A model generated the notes under the pieces. That model was not told the DNA's origin and made no database searches. It saw only the letters and a program-made list of their open reading frames with translations. A program made the translations under genes and the position numbers. 64,000 bases of DNA from Candidatus Fermentithermobacillaceae bacterium DTU015 (lineage in GTDB: Bacteria > Bacillota > Sulfobacillia > Fermentithermobacillales > Fermentithermobacillaceae), in contig LFST01000046.1 in NCBI GenBank assembly GCA_001513185.1, forward strand, positions 171,739-235,738, in the 5' to 3' direction. Shown here one piece after another: positions 5,301-47,029 of the stretch. Each line of letters starts with the position of its first letter. Position 1 is the first letter of the stretch.

Positions 5301-7088
5301 TCAAGCCCGCCTAAACTGTGCCTGGTACAGGTTGGCGTACCGGCCGCCTAAGGCAACCAGTTCATCGTGGGTGCCTGATTCCGTAATCTGCCCGTCTTCG
5401 ATCACCATGATCCGGTCTGCCGACCGCACAGTAGACAGCCTATGGGCGATGATGAACGAAGTCCTGCCTTTAAGCAGCGTCTTGAGTGCCTGTTGTATGA
5501 GCTGTTCTGTTTCCGGGTCCACGCTTGAAGTAGCTTCGTCGAGGATGAGGATCCTCGGGTCAGCTAGGATCGCCCTGGCAAACGCAAGCAGTTGCCGCTG
5601 CCCTGCCGACAGGTTTGTGCCCCGCTCTGTGACTTCGGAATCATACCCTTTAGGCAGGCTTTCAATGAAATCGTGGATACATGCAGCTTTTGCTGCCCTG
5701 ACCACTTCGTCCATAGTGGCATCAGGTTTTCCGAAAAGCAGGTTGTCTTTTATTGTCCCCGAGAAAATCAGCGTGTCTTGGAGTACAATGCCCAGCTGGC
5801 TCCTGTAAGACGGCAGGCTTACTTCAGCAAGGTCATACCCGTCTACGGTGATCTTGCCCGATGAAGGCTGGTAGAACCTGGCCAGCAGGTTGATTATGGT
5901 TGTCTTGCCCGCCCCTGTGGGCCCTACCAGGGCGATGGTTTCTCCTGGGCTCACCTTGAAGCTTATTCCAGAGAGCACCTGCTCGCCGGGTTTGTATGCA
6001 AAGCTTACGTTTTCGAATACAACTTCTCCTTCCAGCCGTGGAAGTTCAATGTACCCTTCCTGCGCTGAAGACCCTGTTTCCGGCTTGAGGTCGAGCACGG
6101 TAAACACCCTTTCAGCCGAAGCCATGGCCGAAAGCACTTGGCTCCACACCCTTGAGAACGTGCTTATAGGTGCCCAGAACTTGCCCAGGTAGTTCACAAA
6201 GGCCCACACCAAGCCTATGGTCATGGTACCTTGGACTACTGCATTTGCACCATACCAGATCACGATTGCCGTGCCCATGGCGCCCACGATATCTGTAAGC
6301 GGCCAGAAGGCCTGGTCCAGCCTGATGGCGCGCATATATGCATCGAAGTATTTCTTGTTAAATTCCCTGAACTTGGCGCTGTTGTGCTTTTCATAGCCGT
6401 ATGCCTGTATCACAGATAGGCCTTGTATGGTTTCGTTAAGATGGGCGTTGATGCTGGCAACCGCCTTGCGGGTGTCTCCCCAGGCATCTTCAAGCGCCCA
6501 CCTTACCTTGGTCAGCACGAACCCAAGCAGGGGGATGGTGACAAACGACAGCAGCGCCATCTTCCAATGGAGATACAGCATAATGCCTACGATACCTACT
6601 AAGGATATAAGCTGGCTTACCAGGTTCACAATCCCTGACGCCGCCAGGTTGCCTATGTGGTTTACGTCGTTGGTGATCCTTGACACGATTTTCCCGGCAG
6701 GCCTGCGATCGAAGAATACAAACGGCAGGGATTGGATGTGGGTGAATAAGTTTTGCCGCAGGTCGTACAGCACCTGCTGGCCCAATATGTTTATGGTTCT
6801 TACCTGGGCCCGCGATGCCGCCCACTGGATGAACCTGAGGACAAGCAGCACGGCCAATGTAACCACAAGTATCCTTACGTTGCCCGGCGTTATCCCGTCA
6901 TCGATGGCTTTCCTGAACAGCAAAGGCTCTACAAGGCCTATGATTATCCCCGTAAGGGTGAGGATTGAAGCCTTTATGGCAGTTTTCCTGTAAGGCCGGG
7001 TATACCCCAGTATCCTAAGGAAATATTCCATGTTAAACGGCCGTTCTTCTGCTTCTTCAATGAGCTCATCAAGGTCGTATTCTGACAT
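5301..7088 (-). CDS. ABC exporter, fused permease/ATP-binding subunit
   Basis: 6-TM N-terminal domain plus NBD with Walker A GPTGAGKTT, signature LSAGQRQ and Walker B ILILDEATS. Confidence 0.9.
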   Translation of the reverse strand: MSEYDLDELIEEAEERPFNMEYFLRILGYTRPYRKTAIKASILTLTGIIIGLVEPLLFRKAIDDGITPGNVRILVVTLAVLLVLRFIQWAASRAQVRTINILGQQVLYDLRQNLFTHIQSLPFVFFDRRPAGKIVSRITNDVNHIGNLAASGIVNLVSQLISLVGIVGIMLYLHWKMALLSFVTIPLLGFVLTKVRWALEDAWGDTRKAVASINAHLNETIQGLSVIQAYGYEKHNSAKFREFNKKYFDAYMRAIRLDQAFWPLTDIVGAMGTAIVIWYGANAVVQGTMTIGLVWAFVNYLGKFWAPISTFSRVWSQVLSAMASAERVFTVLDLKPETGSSAQEGYIELPRLEGEVVFENVSFAYKPGEQVLSGISFKVSPGETIALVGPTGAGKTTIINLLARFYQPSSGKITVDGYDLAEVSLPSYRSQLGIVLQDTLIFSGTIKDNLLFGKPDATMDEVVRAAKAACIHDFIESLPKGYDSEVTERGTNLSAGQRQLLAFARAILADPRILILDEATSSVDPETEQLIQQALKTLLKGRTSFIIAHRLSTVRSADRIMVIEDGQITESGTHDELVALGGRYANLYQAQFRRA

Positions 7089-9280: not shown

Positions 9281-11878
9281 TTAACCCTGGCCTTCTACTT
9301 CTGCCAAGAGCTTCTGCAGGGACTCTTTGGCATCGCCTAGGAGAAGCACCACATGGGGCATCTCGTAGAGCGGGTTGTCTACTCCTGAATAGCCGGGCTT
9401 GGTGTCTAGGTTGCACACGATCACTTTCTTGGCTTTGTCTACATCGAGTATGGGCATGCCATAGATGGGTGTGTCTTCTGCGGTGTTGGCGGCAGGGTTG
9501 ACCACGTCGCAGGCACCCACTACTATGGCAACGTCGGTTTCAGGGAATTCAGGATTGATGTCGTCCATTTCGCAAAGCTTGTCATATGGGACGTCAACTT
9601 CAGCCAAGAGCACGTTCATATGGCCAGGCATCCTTCCGGCCACTGGGTGGATGGCGAACTTGACTTCCACCCCTCTGGCCTCGAGGGCATCCATGAGCCG
9701 TTTTACGTGCTGCTGCGCCTGGGCGATTGCCATGCCGTAGCCAGGCACGATGATGACCTTCTTGGCTTTGGCTAACGCTTCTCCCAATGACTCTTTGCTT
9801 TCCGGCTGAGGCTGTGTGGTTGCAACGTCTTCCTCAGCGTCTGCTTTAGGCAGTGTTCCTTCTGAAGCATAGCCTTCAACCGCTTCCAAGAGCTTGCTCA
9901 AGGACTCTTTGGCATCACCCAAGAGAAGCACCACGTGGGGCATTTCGTAAAGCGGGTTGTCTACCCCTGAATAGCCAGGTTTGGTGTCCAAGTTGCACAC
10001 GATCACCTGCTTGGCCTTGTCAACGTCAAGCACAGGCATGCCGTAGATGGGAGTATCCTCTGCGGTGTTTGCCGCAGGGTTGACCACGTCGCAGGCACCC
10101 ACCACTATAGCCACGTCGGTGTCGGGGAACTCAGGGTTAATGTCGTCCATCTCGCATAGCTTGTCGTAGGGTACGTCCACTTCGGCAAGGAGCACGTTCA
10201 TGTGTCCGGGCATCCTGCCGGCTACAGGGTGGATGGCGAACTTAACTTCCACGCCTCTGGCTTCCAAGGTGTCCATGAGCCGCTTTACGTGCTGCTGTGC
10301 CTGGGCGATCGCCATGCCATAACCGGGTACGATGATCACCTTCTTGGCGGTGGCCAATGCCTTGCCCAAAGCCTGTTTGCTGTCTGGTTGAGGCTGTTCG
10401 GGTGTATCGGCTTCTTGTGTCATGGCCGGTGCTTCTTGTTGTGCAGCTTGGCCTTCAATCGCTTGCAACAGTTTAGTCAAGGACTCTTTGGCATCACCCA
10501 AGAGAAGCACCACGTGGGGCATTTCGTAAAGCGGGTTGTCTACCCCTGAATAGCCAGGTTTGGTATCCAGGTTGCACACGATGACGTTTTTCGCCTTATC
10601 TACATCAAGCACGGGCATGCCGTAGATGGGAGTATCCTCTGCGGTGTTTGCCGCAGGGTTAACCACGTCGCAAGCTCCTACTACTATGACAACATCGGTT
10701 TCCGGGAATTCAGGGTTGATGTCGTCCATCTCGCACAGCTTGTCGTAGGGCACGTCCACTTCGGCAAGGAGTACGTTCATGTGTCCGGGCATCCTGCCGG
10801 CTACAGGGTGGATGGCGAACTTGACCTCAGTGCCTTTGGCCTCGAGGGCATCCATGAGCCGCTTTACGTGCTGTTGCGCCTGGGCGATTGCCATGCCGTA
10901 GCCGGGCACGATGATAACCCGTTTGGCTTCCCTCAGCATACGTCCGGCAGGGAAAGGATCCTCTGCTTGTTCTTCGGGTGCCTGAAGTGCTTCAGCCGCC
11001 GGTACGGGTGCAGCTGGTTCTGCAGGGGCTTCCGGTGCTTCGTCCTGAGTCTTAGGTTTGGATGATGGTTTAGCGATGGCGCCGCTGAGCACGTGGGCGA
11101 GCGACCTGTTCATTGCCCTGCACATTATCTGGGTGAGGATAAGCCCTGATGCCCCGACGATCGCTCCTACCGCGATGAGCAGCGGGTCTGAAATGGTGAA
11201 ACCTACGATAGACCCCGCCAACCCTGAGAAAGAGTTGAGGAGCGAGATGGTGATGGGCATGTCAGCCCCACCCACCCTTATGGCGAACAGCACGCCGTAG
11301 ATGTTGGACAGGATGAGCACGAGCACTGACAAGGGCACCACTGCTGTATCGAAGAACAGGGTGGCAATCCCCAAGCCGAACATGGCTACGATACTCAGGT
11401 TGGCCCAGAAATTATGGTTTGGAAGGTGTACAGGCATCTGGGTCATGCGCCTGTCCAGCTTTGCCGCAGCTATCATACTGCCACTGAACGTCACGCCCCC
11501 GACGATGAGCCCCAGCTGGCCGCTGAGCTTGTTGAACGTAGCCATCTGATGGTATTTATCCATGACTTCCATCATGGATACCAGGGCCGAGGCTGCGCCG
11601 CCGAACCCGTTGAGCAAGGCTACCATCTGTGGCATCTGAATCATCTTGACCCTCAGGCCAAGGGTCAGGCCAAAGGCTGCACCAACTGCCATTGCCGCCC
11701 ACAGCAAAGGCACAGTCAGTATGCCATTGTTCCAAAGGGTCAACAGTATGGCGGTAAACATGGCCAGGGCGCTTAGTCGGTTGCCATTCACAGCGGTCCG
11801 GGGAGAGCTCATCATCTTAATGCCAAGGAGGACCAACCCTGAAAGCACGATCGAAACTACAACATATAAGCGATCCAT
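9281..11878 (-). CDS. pntB: NAD(P) transhydrogenase beta subunit (PntB) with three tandem dIII domains
   Basis: N-terminal ~270 aa multi-TM dII domain, P/A/E-rich linker, then three complete dIII NADP(H)-binding domains. Each begins KRVIIVPGYGMAIAQAQQHV and ends VVLLLGDAKESL. Confidence 0.85.
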   Translation of the reverse strand: MDRLYVVVSIVLSGLVLLGIKMMSSPRTAVNGNRLSALAMFTAILLTLWNNGILTVPLLWAAMAVGAAFGLTLGLRVKMIQMPQMVALLNGFGGAASALVSMMEVMDKYHQMATFNKLSGQLGLIVGGVTFSGSMIAAAKLDRRMTQMPVHLPNHNFWANLSIVAMFGLGIATLFFDTAVVPLSVLVLILSNIYGVLFAIRVGGADMPITISLLNSFSGLAGSIVGFTISDPLLIAVGAIVGASGLILTQIMCRAMNRSLAHVLSGAIAKPSSKPKTQDEAPEAPAEPAAPVPAAEALQAPEEQAEDPFPAGRMLREAKRVIIVPGYGMAIAQAQQHVKRLMDALEAKGTEVKFAIHPVAGRMPGHMNVLLAEVDVPYDKLCEMDDINPEFPETDVVIVVGACDVVNPAANTAEDTPIYGMPVLDVDKAKNVIVCNLDTKPGYSGVDNPLYEMPHVVLLLGDAKESLTKLLQAIEGQAAQQEAPAMTQEADTPEQPQPDSKQALGKALATAKKVIIVPGYGMAIAQAQQHVKRLMDTLEARGVEVKFAIHPVAGRMPGHMNVLLAEVDVPYDKLCEMDDINPEFPDTDVAIVVGACDVVNPAANTAEDTPIYGMPVLDVDKAKQVIVCNLDTKPGYSGVDNPLYEMPHVVLLLGDAKESLSKLLEAVEGYASEGTLPKADAEEDVATTQPQPESKESLGEALAKAKKVIIVPGYGMAIAQAQQHVKRLMDALEARGVEVKFAIHPVAGRMPGHMNVLLAEVDVPYDKLCEMDDINPEFPETDVAIVVGACDVVNPAANTAEDTPIYGMPILDVDKAKKVIVCNLDTKPGYSGVDNPLYEMPHVVLLLGDAKESLQKLLAEVEGQG
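9284..10921 (-). repeat. three tandem ~579-bp in-frame coding repeats (dIII domain plus linker) inside pntB
   Basis: Units at approx 10343-10921, 9764-10342 and 9284-9763. The two proximal copies share >80-nt identical runs. The distal (C-terminal) copy is ~85-90% identical to them. Confidence 0.85.
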
Positions 11879-40084: not shown

Positions 40085-40546
40085 CTACTCCTGGCCACCG
40101 TTGCCGACATATACGATCTGGCCTGACGGTAAGAGTCCTAGGTTATCTACTGAAGGATCTGCGGTGATAAGGGTCCCGCCGGAAACCTTGGCAAGGTACA
40201 CACACAAGCTTGTGCCCGGCTCAAGCCCTTGATGTTCCGACATGAGCCTTGCGGCTTCCAGGGCGCCTTCCTGGGTGACAGGTTCCACCTGGAGGGGGAG
40301 CTGGTCAAGCAATGCAAGCAGTTCCGCAAAGCAGTCAGGGTGCTGGGCAAGCCCTTTGTGGTATACGTGGACCATGTCCAGCGCCGTGATGCTCACTTTC
40401 GCCCCGCTGGCGTGGGCTTGTTCCAGGAGCCTCTGAACTACCTGCCCTTTCGGCGTGCCCTCCAGATACGCCATCAGCGCCGGAGCGTCGATTATGCAAG
40501 CTGAGTCACCGCACACTGACGGGCTATCATGACTGGCTGGCTTCAT
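40085..40546 (-). CDS. PIN-domain toxin (VapC-like)
   Basis: Conserved acidic residues in IIDAPAL and LITAD. SD GGAGA 9 nt upstream. Overlaps the upstream antitoxin by 20 nt. Confidence 0.65.
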   Translation of the reverse strand: MKPASHDSPSVCGDSACIIDAPALMAYLEGTPKGQVVQRLLEQAHASGAKVSITALDMVHVYHKGLAQHPDCFAELLALLDQLPLQVEPVTQEGALEAARLMSEHQGLEPGTSLCVYLAKVSGGTLITADPSVDNLGLLPSGQIVYVGNGGQE

Positions 40547-40757
40547 CAGTATGCTCTCCTTGACCGGTGTGTTTCCTGCTGAAAAAACCCAGCCCGTATC
40601 CTACCGGGTCGTCTACTTCAGGCACCAGTACCACCTTGCCGTCAAGGTCGTATACGGCAAACTTGGTTCCGGGCTTAAGGCCCAGCTTATTTCTTATATG
40701 TGCCGGGATGACTATCTGGCCTCTTGTAGAAAGGGACGTTTTGTGCAATGGATTCAC
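40527..40757 (-). CDS. AbrB/MazE/SpoVT-family antitoxin
   Basis: Swapped-hairpin motif TRGQIVIPAHIRNKLGLKPGTKF. Immediately upstream of the PIN gene. Confidence 0.65.
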   Translation of the reverse strand: MNPLHKTSLSTRGQIVIPAHIRNKLGLKPGTKFAVYDLDGKVVLVPEVDDPVGYGLGFFSRKHTGQGEHTDEASQS

Positions 40758-41557: not shown

Positions 41558-42070
41558 CTACTGCGGGTTGTAGTAGCCGTGTTTTTGCATGTAATTGAAG
41601 ATTTTTTCACCGTGCTTTTGCTCGTCGTCCTGAATCTTCTGGAGGTCTCTTCTAAGCTGGGGGTTGGCTGACTCAAACACCGAAGTATCGTAGGCGCCTG
41701 AAATGAACTTCTCGGTCATGAGCATATCTTGGCACATGGCCGCGTCATCAGGCTGGCCCGCTTGCCCCCCCTGGCCTGCCTGGGTTTGACCCTGGGACTG
41801 CTGGTTCCAGGCATAGGTTTGGGCGTCAGCTTGAGCCATCTGCCCTTGTCCTTGTGCCTGGCCCTGTTGCATCCCGCTTTGGCCTTCCAGGTACCTGTTT
41901 AAGGTGTCGTAGTGGTTTTGCTCTTCTTGGGCCAGTTCGTTGAAAAGGTTGCGCAGTTCCTGGCACTGGGTCAGGTTGGCATACCCTCTGTACTTCTTGA
42001 TGCAGATTTCCTCATGGGCTAATTGATCTTGAATCAGCGATCGTTCTTTTTGAGTGAGCTGATGTGTCAT
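41558..42070 (-). CDS. spore coat protein F (CotF)-like, ferritin-like fold with Gln/Gly-rich insert
   Basis: N- and C-terminal Coat_F-like halves separated by QGQAQGQGQ low-complexity insert. SD AAGAGGTGA 5 nt before the ATG. Confidence 0.7.
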   Translation of the reverse strand: MTHQLTQKERSLIQDQLAHEEICIKKYRGYANLTQCQELRNLFNELAQEEQNHYDTLNRYLEGQSGMQQGQAQGQGQMAQADAQTYAWNQQSQGQTQAGQGGQAGQPDDAAMCQDMLMTEKFISGAYDTSVFESANPQLRRDLQKIQDDEQKHGEKIFNYMQKHGYYNPQ

Positions 42071-42409
42071 GGCTATCACCTCTTGTTAAGGATGCGGAAA
42101 AATGCCGCCACATATTCTTGAGACCAATAGGAACTTGCACTGGTTTTGATATGAAGCAGGTCTTGCATACGGCCTGAACAGTGCCTCTAACAGGCAGGCA
42201 GGTGTGGCCGCACAAATGGCTGAGCCAATTTGCCTATCTTGAAATTCTGATTTTGTGCGTCCTTGTCGAAAATAATGGTTGATTTATTGACTGCCAAACT
42301 ATATAGTGTAGAGTGGTAGGGTATCAGTGATGCATGAGACATGAATACCTTACCACCGGGATACCGGATGTGCCGATGGGGATTACTGAAATTATAGAAG
42401 GGTGATTAT

Positions 42410-43672
42410 ATGGCTCAGAAAACCAATCCATTCGAGAACATGCTCGAACAGCTAGACGCGGCCGCAGAGATCGCGGGATTAGACAAACAAGAGTACATAA
42501 CCCTACGTTATCCTGAACGGGAACTTACGGTTAACTTCCCTGTCAAGATGGACGATGGGAGCATCCGCGTGTTTACCGGCTACCGCGTCCAGCACAGCAC
42601 TCTCAGAGGCCCTGCCAAAGGCGGAATCCGGTTTCACCCTGACGTAGACATGGACGAAACCAGGGCTTTGGCAGCGTGGATGACCTTCAAGTGTGCAGTG
42701 GTTGATATCCCCTACGGAGGGGCTAAAGGTGGGGTGACAGTAGATCCTACCGGAATGTCCCAAGGGGAACTTGAGCGGATTACCAGAGCTTACACAGCAG
42801 CTATTGCAGATTTCATAGGACCCGAGAAAGACATTCCTGCTACAGACGTTAACACCACCCAGCAGATGATGGGCTGGATCATGGACACTTACAGCACCCT
42901 CACCGGCGTGTATTCCCCAGGAGTGGTGACCAGCAAACCGGTGGAAGCAGGTGGATCTCTCGGCCGCAAAGAAGCTACAGGATTGGGAGTCTTCTTCGTC
43001 ACCAGGGAACTTGCAAAGAAGCTCGATATAGATCTGGCCACCTCCACCGTTGCGGTTCAGGGATTCGGCAACGTAGGCAGCAATGCAGCCAAGTTCCTCT
43101 ATGAAGCCGGTGCCAAGATCGTCGCCGTAAGCGACGTATCAGGCGGGATTTATTGCGAAGACGGGTTGGACATCCCTGCCCTAATCGAGTACGTTGAAAA
43201 CAATCCTAAGAGAGTCATCGAAGGATATAAACAGGATGGAGTTAAGGCTACAGACAATCATGGAATCCTAACCTGCAAGTGTGACTTCCTGGTCCTGGCG
43301 GCTTTGGAGAACCAGATTACAGAAGAAGTCGCAAAAGAAGTTCAGGCCAAGGTTATTGTTGAAGGTGCCAACGGGCCCACAACCTTTGCAGGAGACAAGG
43401 TACTTGAAGAAAGAGGCATCATAGTCTCCCCTGACATTCTCACCAACGCAGGCGGAGTCACATGCTCTTACTTCGAGTGGGTCCAGAACCTGCAGCACCA
43501 TTACTGGGACCTTGAGACAGTCAACACCAACCTTGAGCGGATCATGGTCAAAGCGTTCAACGAAGTATACGAGACCGCAGAAGAGCTTAAGGTTCCCATG
43601 AGGATAGCTGCTTACATCGTGGCGCTTAAGCGGTTGATTGCTACTCAGAAGATTAGGGGAATTTTCCCATAA
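42410..43672 (+). CDS. gdhA: NAD(P)-specific glutamate dehydrogenase
   Basis: GDH catalytic motif KGGIRFHP...GGAKGGV and Rossmann motif GFGNVGS. Confidence 0.9.
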   Translation: MAQKTNPFENMLEQLDAAAEIAGLDKQEYITLRYPERELTVNFPVKMDDGSIRVFTGYRVQHSTLRGPAKGGIRFHPDVDMDETRALAAWMTFKCAVVDIPYGGAKGGVTVDPTGMSQGELERITRAYTAAIADFIGPEKDIPATDVNTTQQMMGWIMDTYSTLTGVYSPGVVTSKPVEAGGSLGRKEATGLGVFFVTRELAKKLDIDLATSTVAVQGFGNVGSNAAKFLYEAGAKIVAVSDVSGGIYCEDGLDIPALIEYVENNPKRVIEGYKQDGVKATDNHGILTCKCDFLVLAALENQITEEVAKEVQAKVIVEGANGPTTFAGDKVLEERGIIVSPDILTNAGGVTCSYFEWVQNLQHHYWDLETVNTNLERIMVKAFNEVYETAEELKVPMRIAAYIVALKRLIATQKIRGIFP

Positions 43673-43684
43673 GTTTATAGGTTT

Positions 43685-43718
43685 CTGTTGGGACCTCCGG
43701 AAGGAGCATTCCCAACAG
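43685..43718 (+). terminator. compound hairpin 13 nt after the gdh stop (no U-tract)
   Basis: CTGTTGGGA ... TCCCAACAG 9-bp stem enclosing a CTCC-ggaa-GGAG sub-hairpin. Confidence 0.4.
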
Positions 43719-44240
43719 ATAGGTTGCGGAGTCAGGTCTGCAGCAATAGTCTGAGCAAGTATGCAGAAGTGGTTGCGCCAGAGTTTGCAGTACCAAGCAA
43801 GCACAAGTTGCAGCCAGGAACGGAGCAAAGATGCACAACCGATAAAGCACTAGTTGAACAACATTGCGGCACTCATGAAGCTATAAACGGAGCAAGCATT
43901 GTACCAGGATAGGACGTAGCAAGAGACGCGGCAAGCAACCGAGCCAACACCGCCTACACACGACGCACTGGCTGCAGCAAGTACGCAGTAGACACAAACC
44001 AGGAAAAGAAGCAGGAGTTGTAGCAGGGACGCAGCATAGGATTCGGCCAAGACGAACCGGAATTCAGTGATGAGATTCACGACACAGGGGTTTTGAAACC
44101 GCACTGGGTACGATTCAAGGTTTTGGTCGATGCAGCATCCGACGAAAGAGTAACCGGAACAGGGAACGGAGCTTATATGCACCAATGTATGAACCGTGCT
44201 TCACACAACACGACGGAACTATACCGCAGCCTAGCGTAAG
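43719..44240 (+). ncRNA. T-depleted A/C/G-rich non-coding region, candidate structured or large ncRNA
   Basis: ~520 nt with only ~13% T on the plus strand and recurring GCAGCAA/AGCAAGC motifs. No SD-led ORF. Ends at a strong terminator. Confidence 0.35.
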
Positions 44241-44266
44241 AGGGCCCTTTTGAAGGGCCCTTTTAT
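44241..44266 (+). terminator. strong intrinsic terminator
   Basis: AGGGCCCTT-ttg-AAGGGCCCT 9-bp GC stem followed by UUUUAU. Confidence 0.75.
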
Positions 44267-44373
44267 ATTGTAGAATCAAGTCAAGTGCAAAGGTTTGGTT
44301 GCAAAAAGGTGGGTGTGGGTTGAAAGCCATGGGGTGCGGTGGCTGCGGAAGCAAGCCAAGTGAGGGGCCTAGC

Positions 44374-45069
44374 ATGTCCTGGGAATATGCAACACGGGTG
44401 AAGCACAATCCCGCATATGCCGTGGTTGTGGCAGGTGGCTCTAAGACCGAATCAGACCTCAGGGTGGTGGAACGCGCCTCTCTGGTGGTTGCAGCAGATT
44501 CAGGGGCTGAGTTTTTGAGGCAGCACAAGCTGGTTCCCGACATAGTAGTGGGGGATTTCGACTCTTGCCATCCTGATACCGTTGCTCGCTTCAGGGACCT
44601 GGGGGTGCCGGTGGTCTGCCTTGAGCGGGATAAAGACAAGACCGACACCGAGGTCGCACTGGATTTGATTGCGGGTAAAGGATTCGACACCGCAATCATA
44701 ATCGGCGGGACCAGGGGAAGGCGACTGGACCATGAACTGGCCAACGTATTCTTGATCGAGCACTATGCCAGAAAAGGCATGGATGTGATAATCCATTCCC
44801 AAGACTCTGTGATTTTTGGGGTATCCGGAGATGAAGGCGGCCCGGCGATACGGCGGCGGGTGTTTGCCGGCAACCCGGGTGACTGGGTGACCATAATGCC
44901 CATAACTTCCCGGGTTACCGGTGCTGTTTCGTCTAACCTCAAGTTCCCCCTCAAAGATGATGTGCTTTACAGGGGAAGCACCCTCGGCGTTTCCAACGAG
45001 ATGCTTGATAGCACCGCGAGCATAGCGATTACCTCGGGCTTTGCCCTGGTATTGCTCCATCCCAGATAA
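44374..45069 (+). CDS. thiamine diphosphokinase (thiamine pyrophosphokinase)
   Basis: TPK blocks VVAADSGAEF, VGDFDS and KDKTDTEVAL. ATG 44374 lies 6 nt after GAGGGG. The track ORF adds a Cys/Gly-rich 25-aa N-terminus. Confidence 0.8.
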   Translation: MSWEYATRVKHNPAYAVVVAGGSKTESDLRVVERASLVVAADSGAEFLRQHKLVPDIVVGDFDSCHPDTVARFRDLGVPVVCLERDKDKTDTEVALDLIAGKGFDTAIIIGGTRGRRLDHELANVFLIEHYARKGMDVIIHSQDSVIFGVSGDEGGPAIRRRVFAGNPGDWVTIMPITSRVTGAVSSNLKFPLKDDVLYRGSTLGVSNEMLDSTASIAITSGFALVLLHPR

Positions 45070-46006: not shown

Positions 46007-47029
46007 TTACCTGTGGCGGGCTAAAACACGCCTCGTGCCGTCCTGGATTTCATCAGGCTCCAGGCGGCGTTGCTTGAGCCACCCCCTACGTATTCCCACG
46101 CCTGGCTTGTGTCTTTGTGCCGGCGGTTGTACCGGCGTCTTGATACACTGAGATGGCTGCTTTGAGACAGGTTTTGCTATTACCGACTCGCCGTCAGGCG
46201 ACAAGCTTATCTGGACTTCCTGTCCGTGTTTGCCGGGAGCCTCAGGCGGAGGCGGTCCGACTGGGGTGCTAGCCGGCTTTGACCTGGACTTTTCCAGCCC
46301 AGCCAAAAAGTTGACCAAAGAAACTATGAGCTTGGGGTCTAATCCAAAGCTGCCTTGGGAGGAAGCAGTTGGCTCCTCCTTAGATACCGCGGCTGCGTCG
46401 CCGGAGGCTTCAGGAGCTGAAGCGGGTTTACTCCTGGTCAAGGATGGGATCAGTTTCAGGATAGCCGAAATCAGGTTAGGGTCGATTCCCCCTTGTTTGC
46501 TGCCAAGGAGCAACGGTAACGCAGAAAGCAAGGGCGCCAGAGCATCAGGTTTAGCTGCCCCGCCTTGGGTACCTGGCAGTCCGGCCGGCTGCGCTTGTGT
46601 TTGGATGCTGCCTTGTGTGGCGGCCGGCTGTGCTATAGCCTCTGCAACGGGACTGTCTTTTGGTGAACCGGAGCTGCCGGCTGATGTTTCCGGGCCGGTG
46701 TCGCTCGGGGCAGCCTGTGTAGCCGGCCGGTCATCTCCGGTGGTATCAGGCCTGCCTGCGTCTAGCCCGGCTTCGTCCAAGCCGGTTCTGCGAGGGGCCG
46801 AAACCTCTTGCAGCTCGCCGGCGGCGTAAAACACTTCCAAAATCCCCATGAGGTTAAGCAGTGCAAGCAGTCCTGCTTTTTCCCGGACCCAAGCAGGATC
46901 ACCGGCACCTTCACTAGTCAAGCAAACCTGGGCAAGCCGGCTAAGGCTGCCGTTACTCACCGTTTGCTCCACTCCGTCCAAAGAAGCCAGCAAACTCCGG
47001 AGGTACTTTTCCACCCAACACGCCTCCAA
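46007..47029 (-). CDS. Pro/Ala/Ser/Gly/Gln-rich low-complexity protein
   Basis: Long ORF co-oriented with and overlapping the 3' end of the ybaB-like gene. Start ambiguous (GTG/TTG candidates between 46963 and 47029). Amphipathic segments among low-complexity tracts. Confidence 0.45.
   Translation of the reverse strand: MEACWVEKYLRSLLASLDGVEQTVSNGSLSRLAQVCLTSEGAGDPAWVREKAGLLALLNLMGILEVFYAAGELQEVSAPRRTGLDEAGLDAGRPDTTGDDRPATQAAPSDTGPETSAGSSGSPKDSPVAEAIAQPAATQGSIQTQAQPAGLPGTQGGAAKPDALAPLLSALPLLLGSKQGGIDPNLISAILKLIPSLTRSKPASAPEASGDAAAVSKEEPTASSQGSFGLDPKLIVSLVNFLAGLEKSRSKPASTPVGPPPPEAPGKHGQEVQISLSPDGESVIAKPVSKQPSQCIKTPVQPPAQRHKPGVGIRRGWLKQRRLEPDEIQDGTRRVLARHR

Follow-up and report, generated by a model that had tools for sequence, protein, structure and literature searches.

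To our knowledge, few bacterial 3' untranslated regions (3'UTRs) as long as ~400-800 nt are conserved throughout a family, and those that have been studied, such as RsaC, proved to be regulators. RsaC of Staphylococcus aureus is a long small RNA (sRNA) from the mntABC 3'UTR that combines a repeat part of variable length with a conserved 3' part, base-pairs to sodA mRNA and is released by RNase III (PMC6765141). Here, we describe an element of similar layout in a stretch of 64,000 nt (the window) from Candidatus Fermentithermobacillaceae bacterium DTU015 (GCA_001513185.1, contig LFST01000046.1, forward-strand positions 171,739 to 235,738), where it occupies positions 43673-44270 between gdh, a glutamate dehydrogenase-family gene, and the thiamine pyrophosphokinase (TPK) gene. 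The comparisons presented below go most of the way towards establishing it as a lineage-specific non-coding RNA, predicted to form a long gdh 3'UTR in Ca. Fermentithermobacillaceae that ends at an intrinsic terminator, P3. They go equally far for its likely lasso shape, in which a hairpin (P1) is followed by a long-range helix (P2), closed by a short anchor sequence around a weakly structured loop of repeats, and then by P3. The element may, in addition, be released from the gdh mRNA. The best explanation of the loop, to which we assign a probability of roughly 40%, is that it serves as a multivalent single-stranded platform or sponge for an RNA-binding factor.

By analogy, RsaC is the nearest described counterpart in layout. 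Each of the two RNAs follows a metabolic gene or operon immediately, without a terminator in the gap, and has a length uncommon among bacterial sRNAs; each also combines a repeat part of variable length with a more conserved, structured 3' part (here 44040-44130, in the clade of the window only). Both also have a large hairpin at the 5' boundary as a possible processing site, which makes P1 a candidate site of this kind. However, RsaC has neither a long-range helix closing its repeats nor a described U-poor array of 11-12-nt units, and the two share no sequence relationship. As far as sequence can tell, the element has the arrangement of a 3'UTR-type RNA: it lies downstream of an open reading frame (ORF), no terminator intervenes, and the terminator of the mRNA appears to be shared.

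The multivalent titration logic proposed for the loop is that of CsrB/RsmZ (with CsrA) and CrcZ (with Hfq/Crc), which likewise extend over several hundred nucleotides and hold many copies of a short word; the A-rich, weakly structured body of CrcZ also resembles that of the element. However, the element uses Y-G-Y-A-G-C as its word instead of AANAANAA or of GGA in hairpin loops, and its sites stand in a near-regular 11.6-nt register, inside an invariant helix and attached to an mRNA. Similarly, the (G/U)AG arrays for TRAP in Bacillus trp leaders present short words at regular spacing in single-stranded RNA, as an oligomeric protein would read them, but they have a period of 5-6 nt over ~55 nt of a 5' leader, whereas the element repeats a different word every ~11.6 nt over 270-700 nt of a 3'UTR.

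The gdh stop codon is the TAA at 43670-43672, and the interval from there to the TPK gene is free of genes. No terminator was found between the stop codon and 44236 by a terminator scan and by folding, and the gdh transcript must, as read from the sequence, continue into the element. Sigma-70-like promoter candidates for gdh lie at 42279-42314. The gene and the parts of the conserved frame are as follows.

42410-43672, plus strand: gdh, an ORF for a Glu/Leu/Phe/Val dehydrogenase of 420 aa (Pfam ELFV_dehydrog_N and ELFV_dehydrog).
43684-43719, plus strand: P1, the hairpin after the gdh stop, with an outer 10-bp stem UCUGUUGGGA/UCCCAACAGA, an inner CUCC/GGAG and no U-tract (inverted repeat I4, 100% complementary).
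43720-43729, plus strand: the anchor, predicted 5' strand of the long-range helix P2, with GGUUGCGG at 43722-43729; UA at 43720-43721 extends the pairing in the window.
44224-44233, plus strand: predicted 3' strand of P2, with CCGCAGCC at 44224-44231 pairing with the anchor; UA at 44232-44233 extends the helix.
44236-44269, plus strand: P3, the intrinsic terminator, with GGGCCC at 44242-44247 and GGGCCC at 44255-44260, then UUUUAUAUU (inverted repeat I2; minimum-free-energy hairpin at 44236-44266).

The arms of P1 in the window (43684-43693 and 43710-43719) are complementary at 10/10 positions, and the RNAalifold consensus of 10 species contains 15 P1 pairs, with compensatory double changes at four of them. 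In the relatives, the 5' arm begins 3-4 nt past the stop codon, and in the window 11 nt past it; an earlier note, made from the letters of the window, had correctly described this opening hairpin and its lack of a U-tract and had placed it 13 nt after the stop. Compared with all relatives, the window carries extra bases at 43673-43683 (TAAGTTTATAGGTTTCTG vs TAAGTTTCTG), which look like a short duplication that shifted P1. Downstream of P1 by 2-4 nt stands the anchor GGUUGCGG, invariant in 13/13 lineages, and its partner CCGCAGCC follows 272-697 nt further on, just ahead of the terminator; the P2 loop of the window measures 494 nt. All 80/80 cells of the 8-bp helix hold standard pairs in 10 species, and the variants seen, CCGCAACC (U-G to U-A, twice) and CCGCAGCU (G-C to G-U, once), keep the pairing; if the partner is slid by 1-3 columns, pairing falls to 18-56%. 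Formation of P2 is strongly suggested by this alignment.

The closing terminator of the earlier note is borne out as P3, with its GGGCCC/GGGCCC core and U-run; its arms extend over 44237-44249 and 44253-44265, and it was missed by a simple terminator scan and found by the repeat finder and the fold. A hairpin with a GGGCC core and a T-run occurs in the equivalent place and orientation in 10 of the 11 complete relatives (L008-L010, L012, L014-L016, L018, L170 and L174), and the element of L013 ends in a different hairpin. Both in the window and in the relatives, the P3-type hairpin with T-run is the first one after gdh.

The Gdh protein of the window is identical to that of a Bacillota metagenome-assembled genome common in digester assemblies, including GCA_050952105.1, and the gdh allele occurs in 378 blocks of the assembly collection, on contigs of up to >1 Mb. 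Among the samples in which the contig is present are SRR24757971 and ERZ27257457. A scan with one genome per species yielded 10 relatives with 83-92% identical Gdh, several of them labelled Candidatus Fermentithermobacillaceae, and an A-rich, T-poor non-coding stretch starts at the gdh stop in 10/10. A profile built from the four closest copies, run with nhmmer over all fetched loci, picked up one or both ends of the element in all relatives but L013, where the anchor and the hairpin were recognised by eye; it found the element only after gdh, with no paralogous copies. For L011, only the first ~100 nt are usable, as a contig end cuts the element. Scanning metagenomes for a stricter 5'-frame pattern, in the version of the other clades, returned 10 stretches, of which three are real (L170, L174 and a repeat of L012), all adjoining gdh, and seven are chance matches; a looser, degenerate form of the pattern was unspecific in viral contigs (at least 120 chance matches).

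Overall, the element lies directly 3' of gdh in each of the 13 lineages whose Gdh is at least 80% identical (the window, L008-L016, L018, L170 and L174). It is absent from outgroups with Gdh 76%, 69% and 68% identical, the next-nearest clusters in the protein database, in which ordinary terminators come right after gdh; the Gdh clusters at 83-84% in that database are species already sampled. The plus-strand, non-coding element bounded by a hairpin and a terminator that the earlier note had proposed is conserved among relatives. Its downstream neighbour is not constant: TPK, a thiamine pyrophosphate (TPP) riboswitch with a thiT-like gene, NAD synthase on the opposite strand and others have been found, including in L010 an unidentified ORF on the opposite strand, and the element therefore belongs with gdh. 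The excess of A over T is always on the gdh sense strand. Most of the core cannot be aligned among the more distant relatives, in which composition and short words persist.

Several observations concern the non-coding status. No gene is called between gdh and TPK in seven independent assemblies of the window organism, as the earlier note had expected, and the four internal ORFs have no match in Pfam. That these ORFs are artefacts of T-poor sequence, as had also been supposed, agrees with the comparison of the window, L008, L009 and L010 (the alignable set), in which stop positions differ in all six frames and the conserved nucleotide blocks hold stops in two of the four aligned sequences. A coding origin is ruled out by motif spacings that three does not divide (11 and 23 nt). 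A coding gene or pseudogene was rejected, because the frames are not conserved, have no Pfam match and are not called as genes, and so was a small ORF at 44093-44239, since L008 has a stop at the second codon of this frame and L009 just ahead of the conserved block. The gdh frame itself runs for 79 sense codons on the plus strand between the gdh TAA and the next stop (43673-43909), compared with 26 in L008 and 12 in L009; because it is not conserved in these relatives, the run probably results from the scarcity of T rather than from an extension of gdh by read-through.

Searches for known RNA families were made with cmscan against all 4227 families of Rfam 15. At gathering thresholds, no family matched in the 64-kb window, and in the 10 homologous loci the only matches were TPP riboswitches further downstream; OLE, ROOL, GOLLD, raiA and 6S, which the earlier note had named for checking, were thus matched in neither. 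With E<=10 on 43500-44450, just STnc220, GNAS-AS1_1 and RAGATH-35 appeared (E 3.2-3.8), at chance level and far under their gathering scores. The literature on the family name, on GCAGCA-binding proteins and on unstructured A-rich sponges yielded no account of the element. The antitoxin RNA of a type III toxin-antitoxin system (ToxI-like) was considered and rejected, as no toxin gene is conserved beside the element and the downstream gene is variable.

Within the frame, two regions can be distinguished.

43735-44036, plus strand: central degenerate repeat array (A 35%, T 13%), with an 11-12-nt unit and Y-G-Y-A-G-C words.
44040-44130, plus strand: clade-specific 3' subdomain, in which UCGGCCAAGAC (44043-44053) is predicted to pair with GUUUUGGUCGA (44120-44130) around conserved segments containing CAGGG.

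The composition of ~13% T and ~35% A given earlier for the interval holds for its central part (43740-44035; A 35.1%, T 12.8%) and not for the whole of 43673-44270 (A 31.3%, C 23.1%, G 27.8%, T 17.9%). The 598-nt segment with the top A-over-T skew of the 64 kb begins at 43693 (0.315; mean -0.007, standard deviation 0.113), and the nine 200-nt segments of the 64 kb with the lowest T content all fall within 43761-43921 (T 11-13.5%, A 33.5-37%). The loop contains 32-44% A, 16-21% T and 59-66% purine in every lineage, and its length varies 2.5-fold among them. Compared with dinucleotide shuffles, folding of the enclosed core gives z values from -0.5 to +2.1 in nine species, and the core energy is -0.11 to -0.27 kcal/mol per nt, whereas three 490-nt stretches elsewhere in the window have -0.32 to -0.38. 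The central array of the window alone has z = +1.47. Folding of 43673-44270 as a whole gives z = -4.2, a value due to the flanking hairpins and the 3' subdomain. The latter (z = -2.4 for 44036-44221) occurs only in the window, L008, L009 and L010, where it forms a strongly conserved alignment block; its 24 RNAalifold pairs are almost all invariant, and its covariation is uninformative for this reason.

These values bear on the suggestion of the earlier note that the interval encodes a large, ornate structured RNA. The element shares with OLE, ROOL, GOLLD and raiA a size of ~0.5-0.6 kb, an anaerobic Bacillota host, a non-coding nature and a terminator at the end. However, it lacks a covariance-model match and extensive conserved structure, and its core cannot be aligned across the family; only the frame and the clade-specific 90-nt subdomain are structured. 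The ornate-RNA idea is wrong in kind, and a low-structure repeat array in a conserved frame takes its place. Stable motif-motif hairpins, which the quasi-palindrome UGCAGCA with its central A-A might form, are unlikely as well, since the array folds no better than shuffles.

Depletion in the loop extends to dinucleotides: CC (odds 0.58), CT (0.66) and TC (0.71) are scarce, and CA (1.44) and GC (1.45) are enriched. Pyrimidine-C (YC) dinucleotides amount to 4.1% in the array versus 12.2% in the window, and the loop has less C (20.5%) than G (24.4%). A Rho utilisation (rut) region was rejected as an identity for the loop, because the composition is opposite on each of these counts (C below G, CC and TC depleted, YC 4.1%); the region looks, on the contrary, as if selected against rut features. 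Such depletion of U and of YY steps is also what one would expect if the element were a module acting on gdh in cis only, with P1, P2 and P3 stabilising or processing the mRNA and the loop selected for what it lacks (U-tracts, YC steps, structure, RNase sites), its words having no role in recognition. Attachment to gdh whatever gene follows, the missing terminator between gdh and the element, and the closeness of P1 to the stop codon, a few nucleotides away in relatives, fit this explanation too. However, it accounts neither for the retention of a 270-700-nt loop against bacterial deletion bias nor for a ~9-fold excess of a hexamer, in an 11.6-nt register, across cores that cannot be aligned, and we regard it as unlikely.

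Like the low structure and the rut-poor composition of the loop, its repeats, their word and their register speak in favour of the platform. Among the repeat words, TGCAGC occurs 26 times versus 2.8 expected, CGCAGC 13 versus 2.7, CGTAGC seven versus 1.2 and TGTAGC six versus 1.2; the context is A-Y-G-C-A-G-C-A, then purines. The words GCAGCAA, AGCAAGC and ACGCAG, whose recurrence had been noticed earlier, are each found twice in the interval. Copy-to-copy distances peak at 12, 23 and 35 nt (z 8.9, 8.2 and 5.6) and at 46-47 nt, and the pooled GCA periodogram has its peak at 11.6-11.7 nt, with z 7.5, whereas 200 shuffles do not go beyond 5.6. For the window, the best period is 11.7 nt (z 7.4); taken one by one, the window, L009, L014 and L018 show significant periodicity, L174 shows none and the others have a weaker signal. 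At relaxed settings, Tandem Repeats Finder (TRF) finds 7 of 11 cores to contain degenerate repeats, with periods of 11, 12 or 23; the repeat of the window has a period of 12, 10.8 copies and the consensus GACGCAGCAAGA. Motif columns are slightly more conserved than linker columns (0.63 vs 0.54; four alignable species, permutation p=0.05). Tandem elemental-pause sites (G-10 Y-1 G+1) were considered as an identity for the words: by eye, the Y-G step fits, but the upstream G stands at -12/-9 or -11/-8, not at -10, and the idea was dropped.

The same repeats might have another origin. Borg elements carry A-enriched, T-depleted tandem repeats, attributed to a repeat-forming process, of which the intergenic ones may act as regulatory RNAs according to the authors (PMC9879509). 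The present array resembles them in its A-rich, T-depleted sense strand and in units often not divisible by three, as in the intergenic Borg repeats. Following this precedent of repeats that are in part intergenic (PMC9879509), the array could be a minisatellite made by slippage, with little or no function of its own, that arose once in the ancestor of the family and has been kept by expansion and contraction, only the hairpin and the terminator being functional. The degenerate 11-, 12- or 23-nt tandem repeats of most lineages, the different unit of L018, the 2.5-fold range of loop length, the fast divergence of the core and the loss of motifs between L014 and L015 would all be expected under such a process. 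However, Borg repeats are perfect, recent and genome-wide, and belong to archaeal extrachromosomal elements, whereas the array here is old, degenerate, present in a single copy per stretch examined, fixed after one gene and framed by RNA helices. Furthermore, the element has persisted at one site in 13/13 lineages despite unalignable cores, each complete copy of the element has the array between the invariant anchor and its partner, and composition and hexamer have been kept where alignment fails. An array with little or no function of its own is an unlikely explanation in our assessment.

Returning to the platform or sponge, a number of observations weigh against it. P2 shows no double compensatory change in the 10 species, which leaves its pairing consistent, not proven. 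Motif copies have been lost between the close relatives L014 and L015, and the excess of motif conservation is marginal; constraint on any single copy is therefore weak. Density and phase vary, with only two motif copies in L174 and weak periodicity in L016 and L170, and an 11-12-nt unit duplicated in tandem could give rise to the periodicity as a by-product. In L018, there is a 12-nt run (5733-5860, 5533-5631; consensus AACCAAGAAACA, 10.7 copies, 61% matches) without the GCAGC word, which suggests expansion that preserves the unit length and is perhaps ongoing; this run adjoins a masked run of N. Finally, the bacterial sponge motifs that were tested, GGA and (ARN)n, are not enriched. A CsrA-type GGA sponge was rejected, as GGA is not among the over-represented 3-mers and the only GGA-containing words in the top 12 over-represented 4-, 5- and 6-mers, CCGGA and ACCGGA, come from the clade-specific subdomain. 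A (ARN)n sponge for Hfq was rejected likewise, runs of (ARN)3-5 and (AAN)3-5 being at or below the level of dinucleotide shuffles (z -0.1 to -1.1). Any partner would therefore not be CsrA- or Hfq-like in specificity.

The repeat word is also related to the anchor, as seen most clearly in its first copy.

43739-43745, plus strand: proximal repeat word UGCAGCA, 9 nt after the anchor, with which it could pair locally, instead of P2, in a weak hairpin of 5-6 bp.

The P2 partner CCGCAGCC equals the repeat word with C in place of the flanking A, and the word is, by this comparison, a weakened copy of the 3' strand predicted for P2: with anchor positions 2-7, ACGCAGCA or AUGCAGCA could form six pairs, including G-U. 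The proximal copy, 6-12 nt past the anchor, keeps five pairs in nine species, with 10 one-sided changes that preserve pairing (RNAalifold), and the consensus fold of this rung has -2.7 kcal/mol. Taken jointly, the 32 anchor-complementary hexamers occur 77 times versus 39 expected (z 6.8).

One could therefore think of an RNA switch in which the anchor GGUUGCGG pairs successively or alternatively with many rungs of 5-6 bp each. This could take place co-transcriptionally, or the helix could re-form after each bite of a 3'-to-5' exonuclease and so act as a fuse or timer for the gdh mRNA; the words could also be targets of a trans-acting RNA with a GUUGCG-like seed. The complementarity and the joint excess just described are in line with such a switch, as is an anchor that stays invariant while P1 covaries, which is expected if one strand must fit many partners. 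However, the excess is limited to Y-G-Y-A-G-C, the other anchor-complementary hexamers being at expectation (30 vs 30.2), and variants that do not pair are enriched too (YGCACY 22 vs 3.5, YGAAGY 16 vs 5.6), which fits a sequence motif or common descent better than pure pairing. For these reasons, the link between word and anchor may stem from a recognition motif that both share, or from common descent, no less than from alternative pairing. The rung helices are, moreover, weak, especially for a presumed thermophile, and a helix of 6-8 bp is a poor block to exonucleases. The switch is, in our estimation, quite unlikely.

The 11.6-nt period invites a further explanation, at the level of DNA. Bacterial genomes are reported to have an 11-bp sequence periodicity, and the helical repeat of A-form duplexes or RNA:DNA hybrids is similar. 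GC-rich and A-rich half-units phased at ~11.6 bp could produce curved or anisotropically flexible DNA, serving, for instance, as a supercoil sink or as a site of protein wrapping 3' of a gene with high transcription, or the purine-rich, untranslated, unstructured, rut-poor transcript could form a programmed R-loop, as its 59-66% purine and its scarcity of YC would allow. A DNA enhancer downstream of a gdh gene is known from rocG of B. subtilis. However, the element is bounded by features of RNA, namely a hairpin that covaries, a long-range helix and a terminator, bending needs no strict asymmetry of A over T between strands, and no GC-skew sign change, the mark of a replication origin, lies nearby. 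We consider such a DNA-level element highly improbable. A rocG-type downstream enhancer and sigma-54-like half-sites at 11-12-nt spacing were both dropped, since the region upstream of gdh has, by eye, sigma-70-like hexamers and no -24/-12 element of the right spacing.

If the platform reading is correct, RNA polymerase would pass P1, which has no U-tract, and would stop at P3; every gdh transcript would therefore carry the element, and its abundance would track gdh expression. P1, P2 and P3 would make up a compact base that shields the 3' end and presents the loop as a long single-stranded multivalent platform, to be bound by many copies, or by an oligomer, of a putative single-strand RNA-binding factor. 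The sponge or scaffold logic would be that of CsrB or CrcZ, although the word differs and the register is regular. With so few U and YC steps, an untranslated RNA of ~500 nt would evade Rho loading, U-dependent pausing and AU-directed endonucleases. As an alternative use, the loop could offer a ladder of partners to the anchor.

Three features of the element have not been described together: a loop apparently selected to be single-stranded and to avoid Rho and U-dependent signals, a word period of ~11.6 nt and an invariant long-range clamp. It is conceivable, if doubtful, that they define a new kind of riboregulator, a "lasso" RNA in which an 8-bp helix holds open an unstructured, U- and YC-depleted loop of 270-700 nt, a hexamer every ~11.6 nt provides a track for a protein (oligomer or filament) or a ladder for the anchor, and dosage is hard-wired to gdh. 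If the array binds a protein, bacteria that are abundant in thermophilic biogas reactors would be expected to possess a new global regulator that binds RNA and is linked to nitrogen and amino-acid metabolism; if it is a ladder of alternative pairings, it would represent a new way to time mRNA decay or folding. Even the least exciting reading would provide a natural example of a long untranslated bacterial RNA shaped to escape Rho and RNases.

Some minor observations were made on the homologous loci. In several relatives, a TPP riboswitch and a gene for a thiT-like membrane protein stand upstream of TPK, and in L012, L018 and L170 they are immediately 3' of the element; the riboswitches lie at L012 5962-6072, L013 7012-7122, L014 6743-6853, L018 6085-6193 and L170 10430-10539. 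The window has no thiT-like gene at this place and no TPP riboswitch in its 64 kb by cmscan. A palindromic element that contains GGGGACGGTYC occurs 3' of the terminator in L012 (5850-5925, as an inverted repeat with arms of ~25 bp), L013 (~5598-5615), L170 (~10290-10310) and the outgroup L179 (~2855-2870) and may be a small dispersed repeat; the best match in the window is a single one with one mismatch, at chance level. The contig end of L011 (4743-5055) carries an inverted duplication of the gdh 3' end with P1 and the anchor; it matches on both strands and was in all likelihood introduced by assembly.

Downstream of the element in the window, the TPK gene (44299-45069) has an ambiguous start: the longest ORF begins at the TTG at 44299 and would gain a Cys/Gly-rich N-terminal stretch (MQKGGCGLKAMGCGGCGSKPSEG), and gene callers place the start at 44320 or 44374. 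No record was found for the exact 256-aa product. Further downstream, an ORF of 340 aa at 46007-47029 (minus strand), P/A/S/G-rich and of low complexity, is called as a gene in all assemblies and has no Pfam family on record.

Upstream of gdh, a Coat_F-family gene (41558-42079, minus strand) is the sole hint of spore-forming. It contains a Q/G/A-rich low-complexity segment (QGQAQGQGQMAQ...), especially at 41700-41830, and its sense strand is T-poor with GCAGCA-like words, a bias due to coding; the Coat_F-family genes of L008, L009, L011 and L018 were flagged by the identical compositional filter. About 1.7 kb upstream of gdh, at ~40085-40748 (minus strand; L001 676-1339), lies a pair of genes for a PIN-domain protein and a MazE antitoxin, that is, a VapBC-like toxin-antitoxin module, and L185, of the same species as L012, carries a PhdYeFM/ParE pair in the equivalent position.

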